Below, in pieces: positions 16,610-22,523 of a stretch of 64,000 nucleotides of DNA (its first letter is position 1; the number at the start of each line of letters is the position of its first letter). Source of the DNA: Candidatus Sericytochromatia bacterium (GTDB taxonomy: Bacteria > Cyanobacteriota > Sericytochromatia > S15B-MN24 > UBA4093); assembly GCA_036676985.1 (NCBI GenBank), contig JAKFBU010000076.1, forward strand, positions 1-64,000. The letters are read 5' to 3'. A model generated the notes under the pieces. It was given only the letters and a program-made list of their open reading frames with translations, was not told where the DNA came from and did no database searches. The translations under genes were made by a program, and so were the position numbers.

Positions 16610-17017
16610 GTGGCAACCAAGACCAAGACTGCCGCTTATTGGGGCACCGGTCGTCGCAAGACGGCGATCGCCCGTGTCCGCCTGGTGCCCGGCACCGGCA
16701 CCGTGACCATCAATGAGCGTCCGCTCGACAACTACGTCGGCTACCGCTCGGTCCTCATTCGCGAAGTGGGCCTGCCCCTCGAGGCGACCAACAACGCGGG
16801 CCGCTACGACGTGCACGTGCGCGTCGCGGGCGGCGGGGTGACCTCGCAGGTCGGCGCCATCCGCCTCGGCGTGGCCCGTGCCCTGCTCAAGGTCGATCCC
16901 GAGTACCGCAGCAACCTGCGCGCCGAGGATCTGCTCACCCGCGATCCCCGCGCCAAGGAGCGCAAGAAGTACGGCCGCAAGAAGGCCCGTAAGCGCTTCC
17001 AGTTCTCGAAGCGCTAA
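16610..17017 (+). CDS. rpsI: 30S ribosomal protein S9
   Basis: GTGRRKTA...LTRDPR.KERKK...QFSKR. Confidence 0.99.
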
Positions 17018-17030
17018 GCGTTTCGATCGC

Positions 17031-17062
17031 AAGGACCCCTGCCATTCCGGCAGGGGTCTTTT
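17031..17062 (+). terminator. Rho-independent terminator after rpsI
   Basis: AAGGACCCCTGCC-attcc-GGCAGGGGTCTT followed by further Ts. Confidence 0.85.
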
Positions 17063-17131
17063 CGTGCGCCGATTACGTCAGGTACGCTCCGGGTATGCAA
17101 GGGAGGGAAATCCTGTCGGGGAGGGAGCGAG

Positions 17132-17920
17132 ATGTCCGAACAGCGGAGCGGGAAGAGCCGGCCGGTCAGCCTGGCCATCAGCCCCGGCATGCTGCTCGAG
17201 TCCGAGGGCGCCCATGAGTACGCGCACGGGGTCCAGGAGCGCCTCGACCACTGCGCCGACTACTACCTGCCCTTCACGCTCGTCGGCATCTACCTCGACG
17301 ACGTGCCCATCGGCACGGGCAGCCTGCTCAACACCGACCTGCGCAGCCAGCTCTTCGCCCGCGCCAAGACGCTCATCCAGCGCTCGGTCCGCTCGACGAT
17401 CAACGAGCGGCGCAAGATGACGGACGGCCTCTACCGCATCGATCCCCTCTACGTGGTCGCCCTCTGCAACGCGGACCGTACGAACCACCTCATCCCCGTG
17501 GGCCGGATCATCGAGGCGCTGCGCCAGGCGAGCATGATCAACGAGCTCAACGGCCGCTCGACCTTCCGGCGCCGGATCGTGGTGGGCACCGTGAGCATGG
17601 ATCCGCGCCAGGGCATGCGCACCATCCCGGATCTCACCGAGCGCCTGGTCGAGGCGGTCTACAAGGCCATCGAGGCTCCGCACCCGGATGCCTGCGAGCG
17701 CATGCGCATCGGCAAGTCCATGCACGACGAGATCCTCTACCACGACCTCGCGGTGGGCGAGGAGCGGGTGAGCCCGGCGCACGCCATCCCCCGCTCCGGC
17801 ACCGCCCCCATCGCCAAGTCCGCCTCCGGGCCCATCTCGAGCCGCGCGGCCGTCCCGGTCCGCAGCGCCTCGGCGGCCAAGGAGAATGACCCGAAAAAAC
17901 CCTTCTGGCGCTTCTGGTAG
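17132..17920 (+). CDS. Hypothetical protein, probable degenerate GGDEF-fold domain, C-terminal KKPFWRFW
   Basis: Genome-typical codon usage and RBS; motif pattern PFTLVGIYLDD / SVR / DGLYRI..YVVAL / IVVG / LVEAVYKA parallels GGDEF domains, but GG(D/E)EF is absent. Confidence 0.6.
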   Translation: MSEQRSGKSRPVSLAISPGMLLESEGAHEYAHGVQERLDHCADYYLPFTLVGIYLDDVPIGTGSLLNTDLRSQLFARAKTLIQRSVRSTINERRKMTDGLYRIDPLYVVALCNADRTNHLIPVGRIIEALRQASMINELNGRSTFRRRIVVGTVSMDPRQGMRTIPDLTERLVEAVYKAIEAPHPDACERMRIGKSMHDEILYHDLAVGEERVSPAHAIPRSGTAPIAKSASGPISSRAAVPVRSASAAKENDPKKPFWRFW

Positions 17921-17949
17921 CGCCTCGCGCCCCGACCATAGGAGGAACG

Positions 17950-19572
17950 TTGGACCTCAAGCTCCCCGGCACCGTCTTTGCTCTCTTGTCCCTCACGCTC
18001 ACCATGGGCGCCGCCAAGGCCCCCGAGCTGCCCACCCATCCCCCCGCCACCCCCGAAGAGACCGCACGCGTCATCGAGGCGTTCCGGAACGCTGCCGCCC
18101 GCTCGCTGAGCGATCGCTCCGGCGACCTCTTCGCCCTTCCCGCCAAGTACTCCTTTGTCACCGAGACGGGGCACATGGTCGTGAAGAAGGCGCACGTGCG
18201 CGGCCAGACCCTCGCCATGATGGGCACCTCCCACGGCACGAGCTGGGAGTACGACACGCACATCCCCATCGTTCTCTGGGGCCCCGGCTTCATCAAGCCG
18301 GGCGTCCGCACGCCCGCTCCGGCCCAGCAGCAGGACCTGGTTCCGACCTTCGCCCAGCTGATGGGCGCGGTGCCCCCGGCGGATGCCTACGGCCGGGTCC
18401 TCGGTGAGGCCCTCCTGCCCACCCAGAAGCGCCCCAAGGTCATCCTCACGGTCGTCTTCGACCAGGGCGGCGAGGATTACTACCGGGCGCACCCGGGCGT
18501 CACGCCGCGGCTCGATCGCTTCAAGCGCGAAGGCACCTACTTCACCGAGACGCGCATCACCCACGTGGACACCGAGACGGGCATCGGCCATGCCGCCATC
18601 GGCACCGGAGCCTGGCCGAGCACCACGGGCATCTCGAGCAACAACATCTGGCTGCGCGGCATGGGCGCTCGCCGCTACTCGTTCGAGGGTGAGCAGGGCT
18701 CATCGCCCATCTTCCTGAACAGCCCGACCCTGGGCGATGCCTGGCTGCGCCAGACCGACAACAAGGCGCTCCTGCTCGGCTACTGCTACGCGGACCGCGC
18801 CGCCATCGGCATGGCGGGCCACGGCTCCATGTACCGCGGCAACAAGAAGCCCTGGGTCGTCTTCTACGACGAGAAGAAGGGCGAGCTCACCACCAACGAG
18901 GCCTACTACGAGCTGCCGGCCTACCTGAAGGGCGCAAGCCCCAAGCAGCGCTACGACGAGCTGACGAAGGGCACCGGCCAGTGGATGGGCCATGCGATCG
19001 ACGCCAAGTCGGCGGTCCGCAACACCCCGGCCTACGCGGCCTTCGACGGCGACAACATCGTCAAGCTCATCGAGCAGGAGCCCTTCGGCGCGGACGACGT
19101 CACGGACCTCATGTTCGTGACGCTCAAGTCCACCGACGCCTGCGGCCACGCCTTCGGCCACGAGTCGGACGAGGCGGGCGCGGTGCTCGCCGAGCAGGAC
19201 AAGCAGTTCGGCCGGATCCTCGACGCCCTGACGGCCAAGGTCGGCAAGGACAACGTCGTGGTCGCCTTCACGGCGGACCACGGCAGCGCTCCTCTGGTCG
19301 AGCTCACGGGCGGCAAGCGCCTGAGCGATCGCAAGCTCCTCGCGGATCTCAACCGCCAGGTCGACAAGGTCGCCAACGGCGTGAGCGTCTTCGAGTACGC
19401 CTCGGCGACCCAGCTCTTCGTCAACGAGACGGAGCGCCAGCGGAACAAGCTGACCTACCAGGACCTCAAGGCGGCCGTGCTCGCCTACCAGGTGGACGGC
19501 AAGCCGTTCTTCGTCGACGTCTTGACCCGCCCCGAGGCCCTCGAGCGCATCAAGCGCTTCCTGGTTCCCTAG
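17950..19572 (+). CDS. Alkaline phosphatase superfamily enzyme (PafA/PhoK-like), circularly permuted, with signal peptide
   Basis: RPKVILTVVFDQ, TETGIGH, STDACGH, TADHG; the normally C-terminal RSGD..GTSHG..YDTHIP..DLVPT block lies at the N-terminus. Confidence 0.9.
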   Translation: MDLKLPGTVFALLSLTLTMGAAKAPELPTHPPATPEETARVIEAFRNAAARSLSDRSGDLFALPAKYSFVTETGHMVVKKAHVRGQTLAMMGTSHGTSWEYDTHIPIVLWGPGFIKPGVRTPAPAQQQDLVPTFAQLMGAVPPADAYGRVLGEALLPTQKRPKVILTVVFDQGGEDYYRAHPGVTPRLDRFKREGTYFTETRITHVDTETGIGHAAIGTGAWPSTTGISSNNIWLRGMGARRYSFEGEQGSSPIFLNSPTLGDAWLRQTDNKALLLGYCYADRAAIGMAGHGSMYRGNKKPWVVFYDEKKGELTTNEAYYELPAYLKGASPKQRYDELTKGTGQWMGHAIDAKSAVRNTPAYAAFDGDNIVKLIEQEPFGADDVTDLMFVTLKSTDACGHAFGHESDEAGAVLAEQDKQFGRILDALTAKVGKDNVVVAFTADHGSAPLVELTGGKRLSDRKLLADLNRQVDKVANGVSVFEYASATQLFVNETERQRNKLTYQDLKAAVLAYQVDGKPFFVDVLTRPEALERIKRFLVP

Positions 19573-19586
19573 AATATCTCGCCCAC

Positions 19587-19622
19587 GTTCCGTACCGCCT
19601 ACCTGGGTAGGCGGTACGGAAC
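19587..19622. repeat. Perfect 17-bp inverted repeat (hairpin), no T tract
   Basis: GTTCCGTACCGCCTACC-tg-GGTAGGCGGTACGGAAC. Confidence 0.8.
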
Positions 19623-19699
19623 CCGCGTCCTGGTGCGCTCCGACCCACCTCCAGAGGAGGTACAATGGGGCGTCCCCAGCTTGTTGAAGGAGTTGCCCC

Positions 19700-20866
19700 A
19701 TGACCGACCAGATGCGCATCATGCTGCCCGGTCCCACCCCCTGTCCGAGCTCCGCCCTGCGGGAGATGAGCCGGCCGATGATCAACCACCGCGGCAAGGA
19801 GTTCTCCGCGATGCTGGAGCGCATCACCGAGGACCTGAAGTGGGCCTACCAGACGCGGAATGACGTCCTCATCCTCACGACCTCGGGCACCGGCGCCATG
19901 GAGAGCGCCATCGTCAACATGCTGAGCCCGGGCGATCGCGTCCTCGCCCTCATCTCGGGCGAGTTCGGCAAGCGCTTCGCCAAGATCGCCGAGACCTACG
20001 GCGCGGTGGTCGACACGGTCGAGGCCGTCTACGGCGAGCCCATCCTGCCCGCCATGGTCGAGGAGAAGCTGCGCGGCGTCACCTACAAGGCCGTGCTCTG
20101 CACCCACAACGAGACCTCGACCTCGCTGCTCAACCCCATGAAGGAGATCGCGGCCGTCATCCGGCGCGAGTGCCCGGACGCCCTCATCCTGGTGGACTCG
20201 GTCTCGGGCCTGGGCACCGCGCCCTTGGCCGTCGACGAGCTGGACCTGGACGTGGTGCTCGCCGGCGCTCAGAAGGCCTTCATGATTCCGCCCGGCCTGG
20301 CCTTCGCGGCCGTGAGCCCGCGCGCCTGGGCCGCGCACGCGCAGGCCAAGATGCCCCGCTTCTACTTCGACTACACCAAGGCCCGTGAGTTCGCCAAGAA
20401 GGGGCAGACCCCCTGGACCCCCGCCATCTCGCTGTTCTTCGCCCTCGAAGAGGCGCTCGGCATGCTGAAGAAAGAGGGCCTGGACGCCATCTTCGCGCGG
20501 CACGAGCTGCTCATGCGCATGATCCGCGCTGGCGCCAAGGCGCTCGGCCTGCGCCTGGTGGTCGAGGACGACACCTACGCCTCGCGCGCCGTCACGGGCA
20601 TCTTCCCGCCCGAGGGCATCCACCCCGGCGACCTGCGCAAGGTCATGCAGGACCGCTTCGGCTACGTGGTCGCGGGCGGCCAGGGTCCGCTCACCGAGAG
20701 CATCTTCCGGATCGGGCACTGCGGGTACTACGACGCGGCGGACATGCTGGGCATGCTCTCCGTGCTCGAGGCCTCGCTCTCGATCATGGGGGCCAAGATC
20801 CAGCCCGGAGCGGCGGTGGCAGCGGCCGAGGCCGTCCTCGCCGAGCGCCAGGCCGTCACCCGCTAG
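19700..20866 (+). CDS. Class V PLP aminotransferase (alanine-glyoxylate/serine-pyruvate family), probably acting as phosphoserine aminotransferase
   Basis: MLPGPT, SGTGAMES, HNETST, VDSVS, GAQKAFMIPPG, FRIGH; directly upstream of serA. Confidence 0.88.
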   Translation: MTDQMRIMLPGPTPCPSSALREMSRPMINHRGKEFSAMLERITEDLKWAYQTRNDVLILTTSGTGAMESAIVNMLSPGDRVLALISGEFGKRFAKIAETYGAVVDTVEAVYGEPILPAMVEEKLRGVTYKAVLCTHNETSTSLLNPMKEIAAVIRRECPDALILVDSVSGLGTAPLAVDELDLDVVLAGAQKAFMIPPGLAFAAVSPRAWAAHAQAKMPRFYFDYTKAREFAKKGQTPWTPAISLFFALEEALGMLKKEGLDAIFARHELLMRMIRAGAKALGLRLVVEDDTYASRAVTGIFPPEGIHPGDLRKVMQDRFGYVVAGGQGPLTESIFRIGHCGYYDAADMLGMLSVLEASLSIMGAKIQPGAAVAAAEAVLAERQAVTR

Positions 20867-20891
20867 CGCCCGCGCCTCATAAGGAGCAACG

Positions 20892-22523
20892 ATGACCTTC
20901 ACGTCCACCCCCTCCGAGCAGCAGCGCGTGGGCCAGGCGGGCCCCTTCAACGTCCTGGTCCTGGACCGGGTCGATCCGGCGGGCCTCGCCATCCTGGGGG
21001 ACATCGCCCAGGTCGATGCCCGGGACGCGGTCGCGCCCGACGAGCTCTTGCGGATCATCGGGAACTACGACGCGCTGATGGTCCGCTCGGCCACCAAGGT
21101 CACCCAGGAGGTGATCGAGGCGGGCACCCGCCTCAAGATCATCGGCCGGGCGGGCGTGGGCGTGGACAACATCGACGTGGGCGCCGCCACCAAGCGGGGC
21201 ATCATCGTCGTCAACTCGCCAGAGGGCAACACGGTGGCGGCCGCAGAGCATGCGATCGCCCTCATGTTCGCCCTCGCGCGCCACGTGCCCATGGCGGACG
21301 CCGCCATGAAGCAAGGCGAGTGGAAGCGCGAGCGCTACACCGGCCACGAGCTCTACCACAAGACGCTCGGCATCATCGGGCTCGGCAAGATCGGCAGCCG
21401 GGTCGCCAAGGTGGCCAATGCCGTCGGCATGCGCGTCCTCGGCTCGGATCCCTTCCTCACGCCCGAGCGGGCGCAGGAGCTGGGCGTCGAGCCCGTGGAC
21501 TTCGAGACCTTGATCGCCCAGAGCGACTTCATCACGCTGCACGTGCCCAAGACGGCCGAGACCAGCAAGCTCTTCAACGCCGAGGTGCTCGCCCGCTGCA
21601 AGCAGGGCGTGTGCCTCATCAACTGCGCCCGGGGCGGGGTCATCGACGAGGCGGCCTTGGCGGACGCCATCGAGAGCGGGCATGTGGCGGGGGCGGCCCT
21701 GGACGTCTTCGAGAAGGAGCCCCTGGGCGAGAGCCCGCTGCGGGGCTTGGGCGATCGCATCATCCTCACGCCGCACCTGGGCGCCTCCACCGAGGAGGCC
21801 CAGATCAAGGTGGCCGTGGACGTGGCCGAGCAGATCGTCAGCGTCCTCAAGGGCGAGGGGGCGCGGTCGGCCGTCAACATCCCCACCCTGCGTCCCGAGG
21901 TGGTGGAGCCGGTGCGGCCCTTCATGGGCCTGGCCGAGAAGCTCGGCAGCCTCGCCTCCCAGCTCCTGGACGGTCCCATCGAGCGGGTCGAGATCCTCTA
22001 CCACGGCGGACTGGCGGCGAAGAACGTGGAGCCCCTGACGGTGGCGGCCCTCAAGGGGGCGCTCTCGCACGCGGTGCCGGAGGGCGTGAACTACGTCAAC
22101 GCGCCCCTGGTGGCCAAGGAGCGGGGCGTCGAGGTTCGGGAGAGCCGTTCGAGCGAGTCCAAGGACTACGCGGACCTGATCGCGGTGGCGGTCATCGGCG
22201 GCGGTGGCTGGCACACGGTGGCGGGCACGGTCTTCGGCGAGGGCGACCCGCGGGTGGTGCGCATCGACGAGCATGCGTTCAACATGAGCCCGGCGGGCGA
22301 CGTCTTGATCGCGCCGCACCAGGACCGGCCGGGGGCCATCGGCACCATCGGGACGCTCTTGGGCGAGCTCGGGATCAACATCAACGGCTTCCAGCTGGGT
22401 CGAAAGTACAAGAAGGGCCCTGCGGTGATGGTGCTCAACGTGGACGACGCCATCTCGCCCGAGGCGATCAAGCGCATCTGTGCGCTGGAGGGGTTCCATG
22501 ACGTTCGGTTCGTGACGCTCTGA
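20892..22523 (+). CDS. serA: D-3-phosphoglycerate dehydrogenase (with ASB and ACT domains)
   Basis: VRSATKVT, GRAGVGVDNID, GLGKIG, INCARGG, TPHLGASTEEAQ, DRPGAIG. Confidence 0.96.
   Translation: MTFTSTPSEQQRVGQAGPFNVLVLDRVDPAGLAILGDIAQVDARDAVAPDELLRIIGNYDALMVRSATKVTQEVIEAGTRLKIIGRAGVGVDNIDVGAATKRGIIVVNSPEGNTVAAAEHAIALMFALARHVPMADAAMKQGEWKRERYTGHELYHKTLGIIGLGKIGSRVAKVANAVGMRVLGSDPFLTPERAQELGVEPVDFETLIAQSDFITLHVPKTAETSKLFNAEVLARCKQGVCLINCARGGVIDEAALADAIESGHVAGAALDVFEKEPLGESPLRGLGDRIILTPHLGASTEEAQIKVAVDVAEQIVSVLKGEGARSAVNIPTLRPEVVEPVRPFMGLAEKLGSLASQLLDGPIERVEILYHGGLAAKNVEPLTVAALKGALSHAVPEGVNYVNAPLVAKERGVEVRESRSSESKDYADLIAVAVIGGGGWHTVAGTVFGEGDPRVVRIDEHAFNMSPAGDVLIAPHQDRPGAIGTIGTLLGELGININGFQLGRKYKKGPAVMVLNVDDAISPEAIKRICALEGFHDVRFVTL

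Follow-up and report, generated by a model that had tools for sequence, protein, structure and literature searches.

The window analyzed here, the whole 64,000-nucleotide (nt) stretch at positions 1 to 64,000 (forward strand) of contig JAKFBU010000076.1 from a Candidatus Sericytochromatia bacterium (GCA_036676985.1), contains a gene for a phosphatase whose chain order is rotated relative to that of its known relatives PafA and PhoK, a result confirmed far beyond chance. Judging from sequence comparison, we assign a probability of about two in three to the reading that the encoded protein belongs to the PafA/PhoK branch as an exported two-zinc hydrolase acting by phosphoryl transfer, permuted and equipped with a relocated catalytic lysine, and most likely a phosphate monoesterase. 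The gene and its probable signal peptide are located as follows.

17950..19572 (+): whole gene, circularly permuted PafA/PhoK-like alkaline-phosphatase-superfamily enzyme (open reading frame [ORF] of 540 amino acids [aa], TTG start)
17950..18018 (+): probable Sec signal peptide, aa 1 to ~23, with the hydrophobic stretch GTVFALLSLTLTMGAA (read from the sequence; putative cleavage site)

A phmmer search against all Protein Data Bank (PDB) chains ranked PafA (5tj3, E 8.5e-24) first and PhoK (3q3q, E 1.2e-21) second, and the match to PafA fell into stretches of rotated order: query residues 160-328 corresponded to SEQRES 16-192, residues 355-510 to SEQRES 253-412, and residues 89-155 to SEQRES 469-533, the last stretch taking in the PafA His at SEQRES 475. 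The PhoK stretches followed the same rotated order. Published PafA numbering, used below, equals the SEQRES index plus 11, which can be checked against the 5too mutant chain (T79S, N100A, K162A, R164A). When the profile of a 65-member family alignment (A1) was compared by hhalign with an alignment of the 34 nearest relatives of canonical order, the core (query 157-532) matched canonical positions 23-437 with a probability of 100 and an E value of 1.4e-62, and the moved block (query 43-156), RSGD strand included, matched canonical positions 441-537 of 538 with a probability of 99.6 and an E value of 1e-24. The two parts tiled the canonical protein without duplication or overlap, leaving a gap of 3 residues where the new termini lie and a joint of 4 residues between the old ones; departures from a pure rotation were limited to an insertion of 16 residues in the N-terminal block (around aa 71-86) and some 20 additional residues that follow the signal peptide. 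Moreover, matches of permuted proteins to the NCBIfam PafA model stopped at about position 450 of 554, whereas the canonical relatives gave a single stretch, 23-553. In addition, the last 48 positions of the Pfam Sulfatase model (254-301 of 301) fell on aa 92-140, before the Phosphodiest match. The original prediction, made from the letters of the window, had placed the His-bearing block first, with two parts tiling the fold without duplication, and the split phmmer match and the hhalign tiling agree in bearing this out; the motifs that it had read are likewise all present in the translation. The parts of the rotated chain and these motifs (all on the + strand) are listed below.

18076..18417 (+): permuted block, aa 43-156, homologous to the canonical C-terminal end, with the RSGD strand, His95, W99, Y101, and D102 (hhalign, phmmer)
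18418..18429 (+): junction PTQK, aa 157-160, old C-terminus joined to the old mature N-terminus (query 156 = canonical 537, 157 = canonical 23)
18418..19545 (+): core, aa 157-532, collinear with canonical 23-437 and PafA 24-450 (hhalign, VIA-align)
aa 56-59 (+), from nt 18115: RSGD
aa 92-96 (+): GTSHG
aa 101-106 (+): YDTHIP
aa 129-133 (+): DLVPT
aa 148-151 (+): GRVL
aa 161-172 (+), from nt 18430: RPKVILTVVFDQ
aa 208-214 (+): TETGIGH
aa 281-291 (+): ADRAAIGMAGH
aa 394-400 (+): STDACGH
aa 441-445 (+): TADHG
aa 524-531 (+): VLTRPEAL

The predicted structure accommodated this order. An AlphaFold2 model built with the 65-sequence alignment reached a mean predicted local distance difference test (pLDDT) score of 94.0 and a predicted template modeling score of 0.92, with pLDDT values of 90-98 in the moved block, and in this model the two pieces form one compact fold. 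Foldseek ranked PafA first (E 1.9e-15), and VIA-align superposed model residues 157-538 on residues 24-450 of PafA 5tj3 with a Z score of 29.7 over 368 residues (root-mean-square deviation, 3.5); the corresponding Z score was 27.6 for PhoK and 15-17 for diesterases of the nucleotide pyrophosphatase/phosphodiesterase (NPP) type (~16), phosphonoacetate hydrolase, and sulfatases. Both programs are sequential aligners, and only model residues 157-538 were placed on PafA; the structural alignment ended with about 95 PafA residues left over, and these match the N-terminal block of the query by sequence.

The same order recurred in many homologues, a search for which had been proposed together with the original prediction, so that the naturally permuted PafA-type subfamily envisaged there now has far more members than one gene. 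Order was scored for each protein with one sub-profile for the moved block (aa 55-157) and another for the core (aa 160-460). Among the 120 matches listed at the level of 90%-identity clusters, 119 were permuted and one was a fragment without the block. The best 150 of 4963 representatives of 50%-identity clusters (E<=1e-3) included 94 permuted and 34 canonical proteins and 22 in which the block was undetected, mostly fragments of 147-435 aa beginning inside the core. Genome loci yielded 83 ORFs, counting the window's own locus and one duplicate record, and these were permuted in 73 cases, canonical in 8, and cut by a contig end in 2. The canonical matches (Saltatorellus, other Planctomycetota, and a metagenome-assembled genome [MAG] of Paracoccaceae) acted as a positive control of the scoring. 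According to record titles, permuted members occur in Sericytochromatia/Blackallbacteria, MAGs of other Cyanobacteriota, Methylomirabilota/Rokubacteria, Verrucomicrobiia, Actinomycetes, Elusimicrobia, Leptospiraceae, and Turneriella, the Leptospiraceae members being many and including the cultured species L. idonii, L. yanagawae, and L. vanthielii.

A phylogeny of the core alone, with the moved block removed from all 123 rows and 30 rows dropped (22 without the block and 8 short permuted fragments), contained one branch that parts 89 permuted from 34 canonical proteins (Shimodaira-Hasegawa-like approximate likelihood ratio test, 100; length, 0.51). Distant superfamily members, namely the sulfatase and NPP chains in the PDB and the Pfam Sulfatase model, also bear the block at the C-terminus, and canonical order is therefore taken to be ancestral. 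We conclude on a single origin, the permutation dating back to the common ancestor of a large clade that today spans several phyla. No intermediate with a block-core-block duplication was found in 264 proteins or the 83 locus ORFs, a set that did not take in the class of longer homologues, among which fused tandem forms may occur; likewise, no permuted member was detected by sequence among solved structures (phmmer, all PDB chains).

The source is a draft assembly of 79 contigs, and a mis-join near nt 18420 was conceivable, through which a chimeric contig, or a gene fragment fused to a truncated phosphatase gene by assembly or gene calling, would mimic a rotation. This explanation keeps practically no probability and is already refuted. 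Logan contigs of four other sequencing runs were compared with window positions 17900-19600: one 13,326-nt contig of run X2 covers the entire interval with 17 differences, and the junction at nt 18418-18430 is crossed by contigs that stem from other studies, namely those of X7 (18076-18553) and X9 (18164-18580), with no joints reported. Continuity across nt 18420 had been set beforehand as a check, and the contigs that span the junction come from three other studies; in X5, X7, and X9 some bins of the gene were uncovered, and nothing was concluded from these gaps. Furthermore, a collinear match (E<=1e-130, no internal stops) was obtained in 24 of 41 related genomes, the window's own (G000) included, and the same order in an open frame characterizes the 73 locus ORFs, those of cultured Leptospira among them, and the 94 representative clusters described above. 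An artefact also fits poorly with parts that tile the canonical protein exactly and are predicted with confidence as one domain.

Two local sequence variants were observed in passing. In the related genome G010 (C175:5200-6766, -), the orthologue occupies two frames (query 15-120 in one and 103-529 in the other), suggesting a frameshift or a sequencing error. At window positions 18615-18621, the X5 and X9 contigs carry a 1-nt insertion after 18615 and a 1-nt deletion at 18621, with nearby substitutions, which constitutes a compensated two-codon frame variant of related populations and not a disruption.

In terms of mechanism, the ancestral chain would in effect have been cut in a surface loop near canonical positions 438-440, and the old C- and N-termini would have been joined via about 4 residues, so that the last ~100 residues of the ancestor, with the RSGD strand and the third Zn1 His, would have moved to the front. 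The fold and the bimetallic site (D171, T210, D396, H400, D443, H444, and H95) would thus be reassembled from two pieces. The residues concerned, with the counts in the 65-sequence family alignment and in the 89 permuted and 34 canonical proteins of the tree, are as follows.

18232..18234 (+): His95 codon, predicted third Zn1 ligand, which we take to be the equivalent of PafA H486; invariant in 65/65 and aligned to the His of PafA 'kkgtths'
18460..18462 (+): Asp171 codon (PafA D38, Zn2 ligand); 65/65, permuted 89/89, canonical 33/34
18577..18579 (+): Thr210 codon (PafA T79, nucleophile); 65/65 and 123/123, aligned to T79 and to the T79S mutant chain
18640..18642 (+): Asn231 codon (PafA N100, phosphoryl-oxygen contact); 65/65, Asn in 64/89 permuted and 33/34 canonical
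18790..18798 (+): Ala281-Asp282-Arg283, former K-D-R motif on the 'monoesterase helix'; Lys replaced, Arg kept
19126..19128 (+): codon of Lys393, to which the catalytic lysine is proposed to have moved (PafA A302 in the alignment); 88/89 permuted proteins have Lys here, canonical ones 0/34
19135..19149 (+): Asp396 and His400 within STDACGH (PafA D305 and H309, Zn1 ligands); 65/65 and 123/123
19276..19281 (+): Asp443-His444 within TADHG (PafA D352 and H353, Zn2 ligands); 65/65, with Asp443 in permuted 88/89 and canonical 34/34 and His444 in permuted 88/89 and canonical 33/34

Nine residues of this site (H95, D171, T210, N231, R283, D396, H400, D443, and H444) were invariant across the 65 sequences, which extend down to 36% identity, as were W99, Y101, and D102 of the moved block. 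The original prediction had described an active site altered by the replacement of the K-D-R Lys with Ala. The replacement itself was corroborated by alignment to PafA: position 281 (PafA K162) is Ala in 53, Gln in 11, and Val in 1 of the 65 sequences and Lys in none, and it is Lys in all 34 canonical proteins and in 2 of the 89 permuted representatives. The wider picture of an altered site needed amending, as metal ligands, nucleophile, Asn231, and Arg283 are kept and a Lys has been gained at 393. Compared with the PafA-type monoesterase site, the window protein has the Thr together with the equivalents of Asn100 and Arg164 (T210, N231, and R283) and lacks Lys162 on the K-D-R helix, for which Lys393 is a candidate substitute.

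Position 393 emerged from a scan for columns that discriminate the 89 permuted from the 34 canonical proteins. It lies three residues N-terminal of the zinc ligand D396 and aligns without gaps to PafA A302; canonical relatives have Ser (31), Thr (2), or Ala (1) there, and the Lys recurs in 71 of 71 readable permuted ORFs from taxon-labelled genome loci. Considered jointly over the 123 proteins, Lys is found only at 281 in the 34 canonical proteins, only at 393 in 87 permuted proteins, and at both positions in 1 permuted protein; none lacks both, since the sole permuted protein without K393 (P0133) has K281. This metagenomic protein of 539 aa, which reads 'SLGSTD' at 393 and 'AAKAYS' at 281, lacks Arg283, and sits on a terminal branch within the permuted clade, would represent an apparent swap-back of the lysine. 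In PafA, K162 and R164 contact the O2 phosphoryl oxygen, according to the preprint 10.1101/2020.11.24.383182, and the K162A change lowers catalysis more than 10^6-fold, as reported in PMC10629569, so a plain loss of the Lys would be unlikely in an otherwise conserved site. The supplement of the latter paper assigns A302 to Shell 2 (residues contacting T79, N100, K162, R164, or zinc) and L301, S303, and T304 to Shell 3, and gives a decrease in kcat/KM of log2 4.4 for A302V. The catalytic lysine of the clade was thus apparently relocated to position 393 rather than lost. Under this proposal, the canonical lysine would have been replaced in the clade, by Ala281 in the window protein, and Lys393 would most likely take over its role of supplying positive charge to the phosphoryl group being transferred; Thr210 would attack, forming a phospho-Thr intermediate that would be hydrolyzed by a zinc-bound hydroxide.

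Variant members of the clade were also recorded. Permuted proteins of 650-690 aa from Methylomirabilota/Rokubacteria and Verrucomicrobiia (P0099-P0120, loci L029-L034 and L040) form a subgroup in which the N-terminus is lipobox-like, position 281 is Gln, and the C-terminus is extended by ~120 residues of unknown fold. In three loci of uncultured Actinomycetes (L058, L068, and L072), the permuted core lies within far longer frames (for instance, aa 477-779 of 880 in L058), Asn231 and Arg283 are replaced (DSAK, ELSK, -TGK), and Lys393 is retained together with the metal ligands; such proteins may be fusions or may function differently.

The loss of the K-D-R Lys also admits the reading that the protein is a former phosphatase devoid of catalytic activity or with a binding role only, e.g., a phosphate- or ester-binding protein, given what K162A costs PafA and the absence of the canonical Lys here. 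This appears very improbable, as the seven metal-site and nucleophile residues, with Asn231 and Arg283, never vary in the family alignment and Lys393 is conserved in 88 of 89 permuted representatives; purifying selection holding a complete catalytic set in place favors catalysis.

More has to be weighed on the question of substrate. If the monoester-favoring Lys was truly lost, the main substrates may be phosphodiesters or singly charged or neutral esters (phosphonate monoesters, sulfates), in line with the shift towards diesters that the original prediction had derived from Ala281 in place of K162. PafA stripped of both K162 and R164 has equal mono- and diesterase activity according to the preprint 10.1101/2020.11.24.383182, the pocket has been remodeled clade-wide at 174, 233, and 294-300, and Arg at position 283 (PafA R164), present in 32 of 34 canonical proteins, is retained by 44 of 89 permuted representatives, i.e., it has also gone in half of the clade; the Alteromonas PafA described below is a further argument on this side. 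We nevertheless regard this alternative as unlikely for the window protein, since Arg283 and Asn231 are kept in all 65 sequences of its subfamily, the 'monoesterase helix' region aligns with PafA, and the VIA-align Z scores are 27-30 to PafA and PhoK versus ~16 to NPP diesterases. Moreover, Lys393 appears where Lys281 vanishes, and one exception reverts both, a pattern that would be hard to explain if the Lys were dispensable. A shift towards diesters is thus not indicated for this protein, and its premise, a lost Lys, is weakened by data arguing that the lysine moved; such a shift is possible for the 45 of 89 permuted representatives without the Arg.

Several points weigh against the relocated-lysine monoesterase that we favor. 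Arg is missing in 45 and Asn in 25 of the 89 permuted representatives, so the clade would not be uniformly monoesterase-like. The placement of His95 and Lys393 in the active site is a prediction from alignment, and Shell 2 status says that A302 touches some active-site component and not which one. The covariation of the two lysines amounts essentially to two evolutionary events, the clade split and P0133, the canonical set is limited to the 34 nearest relatives, and the tree came from a quick IQ-TREE search (LG+G4). The clade-specific changes include Gly174 where canonical relatives conserve an Arg, seven residues inserted at 294-300, and the loss of a conserved Trp at 233, and with the pocket remodeled in this way a relocated Lys would still leave room for a different specificity. 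PMC12594817 reports that an Alteromonas 'PafA' whose site is conserved is a diesterase/sulfatase with undetectable monoesterase activity, and therefore site conservation is no guarantee of monoesterase activity. Finally, the gene has no Pho-type context or promoter signal (see below). A phosphate monoesterase is still considered the most likely identity because Asn231 and Arg283 are also kept by the window protein.

Domain and family models gave a consistent placement. The protein belongs to Pfam family PF01663 (Phosphodiest, type I phosphodiesterase/nucleotide pyrophosphatase), with 93.3 bits against a gathering cut-off of 23 over aa 167-527, and is assigned to the alkaline phosphatase superfamily, since the six metal ligands and the Ser/Thr-type nucleophile on an alpha/beta core are all represented (D171, T210, D396, H400, D443, H444, and H95 align to PafA) and the fold matches too. 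The Sulfatase model (PF00884) scored 45.5 bits from two partial stretches, the best being model positions 254-301 only, and the formylglycine motif C/S-x-P-x-R is missing from the nucleophile segment VDTETGIGHAAIGTG, so that a sulfatase identity was discarded. The NCBIfam PafA equivalog NF042991 was matched with 146.2 bits in three stretches, below its cut-off of 650, and the order is rotated rather than collinear with the His block at the C-terminus. Public annotation of the family proteins reads 'alkaline phosphatase family protein' or hypothetical; given 146 versus 650 bits and this generic annotation, a potentially common exported phosphatase may be overlooked. The window protein is probably exported, because its N-terminus resembles a Sec signal peptide (aa 1-20, model pLDDT 49-53) and the N-termini of its homologues are signal-like or lipobox-like.

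Genomic context was lineage specific. Upstream of the phosphatase gene lie rpoA, truA, rplM, rpsI, and an ORF of 262 aa, and downstream lie genes for a class-V aminotransferase and serA, a gene order common only to genomes of the same genus and family. No Pho-related neighbors were found when 73 loci were clustered and 16 cluster representatives annotated, the neighbors being lineage-specific housekeeping genes, and the region 16900-19900 contained no promoter-like sites and one minus-strand terminator-like site inside the gene, no more than in shuffles. The 262-aa ORF (17132-17920, +) in the gap between rpsI and the phosphatase gene ends 29 nt upstream of the latter, matches no Pfam or NCBIfam model, shares 76% identity with its counterpart in a same-genus genome (L002/L011), and is absent at the same position in a same-family genome (L004). 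The downstream pair (19700-22523, +) comprises the class-V aminotransferase, whose best NCBIfam match, the aspartate-glyoxylate aminotransferase BhcA, scores 283 bits against a cut-off of 650, and a D-3-phosphoglycerate dehydrogenase that is full length and has an ACT domain; the pair resembles a serine/glyoxylate module and adjoins the phosphatase only in close relatives.

Neither PhoA (PF00245) nor PhoX (PF05787) was found in the window genome (100% complete by markers), and PhoD (PF09423) gave one weak match of 19.3 bits (35.6 with neighbors). The genome encodes two further PF01663 proteins, both of canonical order and neither with a KDR motif: one of 497 aa without an obvious signal peptide (G000:C30, L089 1076-2569 +) and one of 654 aa (G000:C38, L090 409-2373 -) that has a signal peptide as well as a large insertion.

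No full-text paper linking circular permutation with this superfamily (PafA, PhoK, NPP) was found, most subscription journals lying outside the coverage, and the large permuted family seems to be undescribed. As a tentative and somewhat doubtful proposition, permutation and lysine relocation might together have given rise to a separate class of exported zinc phosphatases that is both ancient and widespread, and that would be the principal alkaline phosphatase of lineages such as the present one, in whose genome PhoA and PhoX were not found. If so, the class would number no fewer than 94 clusters at the 50%-identity level, distributed over Sericytochromatia, Leptospiraceae, Methylomirabilota, Verrucomicrobiia, Actinomycetes, and Elusimicrobia, surveys based on PhoA, PhoD, PhoX, and PafA markers would miss it, and the sub-clades that also lack Arg and Asn would have turned to other substrates. 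It would likewise be a natural experiment in which a residue worth more than 10^6-fold migrated between secondary-structure elements. Few model enzymes have been mapped as thoroughly as PafA, for which more than 1000 single mutants were measured, and the clade thus offers a ready test of the portability of catalytic groups and of the limits that chain topology sets on an active site. The family bears on environmental phosphorus cycling; its carriers are soil, groundwater, and freshwater bacteria, among them several Leptospira species in culture and relatives of cyanobacteria that do not photosynthesize.

Among known systems, PafA of Elizabethkingia meningoseptica (5TJ3, NF042991) is the nearest solved structure by both sequence and fold, sharing the Thr nucleophile, zinc ligands of Asp and His, and phosphoryl contacts through Asn and Arg; like PafA, the window protein is probably exported and presumably has no Mg-site elements. 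The window chain differs in being rotated, with the cut near PafA residue 450, in having Ala for K162 and a new Lys at the A302 position, and in the 7-residue insertion after the K/R helix and the Gly174 that replaces a conserved Arg. PhoK/SPAP of Sphingomonas sp. BSAR-1 (3Q3Q, 5XWI), the second-best match, has a nearly identical 'DRAAI.MGG' helix but retains the canonical order and the KDR Lys. The nearest non-permuted relatives are uncharacterized canonical PafA-like proteins (P0207, P0236, and P0214; E 1e-40 to 1e-32), which match the PafA model end to end and have all metal ligands in common with the window protein; they differ in their unrotated order, in Lys281 (34/34), and in Ser, Thr, or Ala at 393 (34/34). 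The NPP-type phosphodiesterases (Xac NPP, ENPP1-7) share PF01663, the bimetallo core, and the Thr nucleophile, but are far more distant (sequence E>=4e-4) and of canonical order. According to the preprint 10.1101/2020.11.24.383182, NPPs are devoid of the extended auxiliary domain bearing the K/R helix, which the window protein, unlike them, retains. Assignment to the NPP class was rejected accordingly, with Z ~16 versus 29.7 to PafA and with helix 282-289, which bears Arg283, present in the AlphaFold2 model. In Escherichia coli PhoA, Lys328 adjoins the zinc ligand Asp327, and this enzyme might by analogy be a precedent for an active-site Lys supplied by the segment with the first Zn1 Asp ligand. 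PMC12704751 describes residue 328 of PhoA as a key active-site position. PhoA differs from the window protein in belonging to another family (PF00245), in its Ser nucleophile and Mg site, and in the position of its Lys relative to the Asp (+1, against -3 in the window protein).

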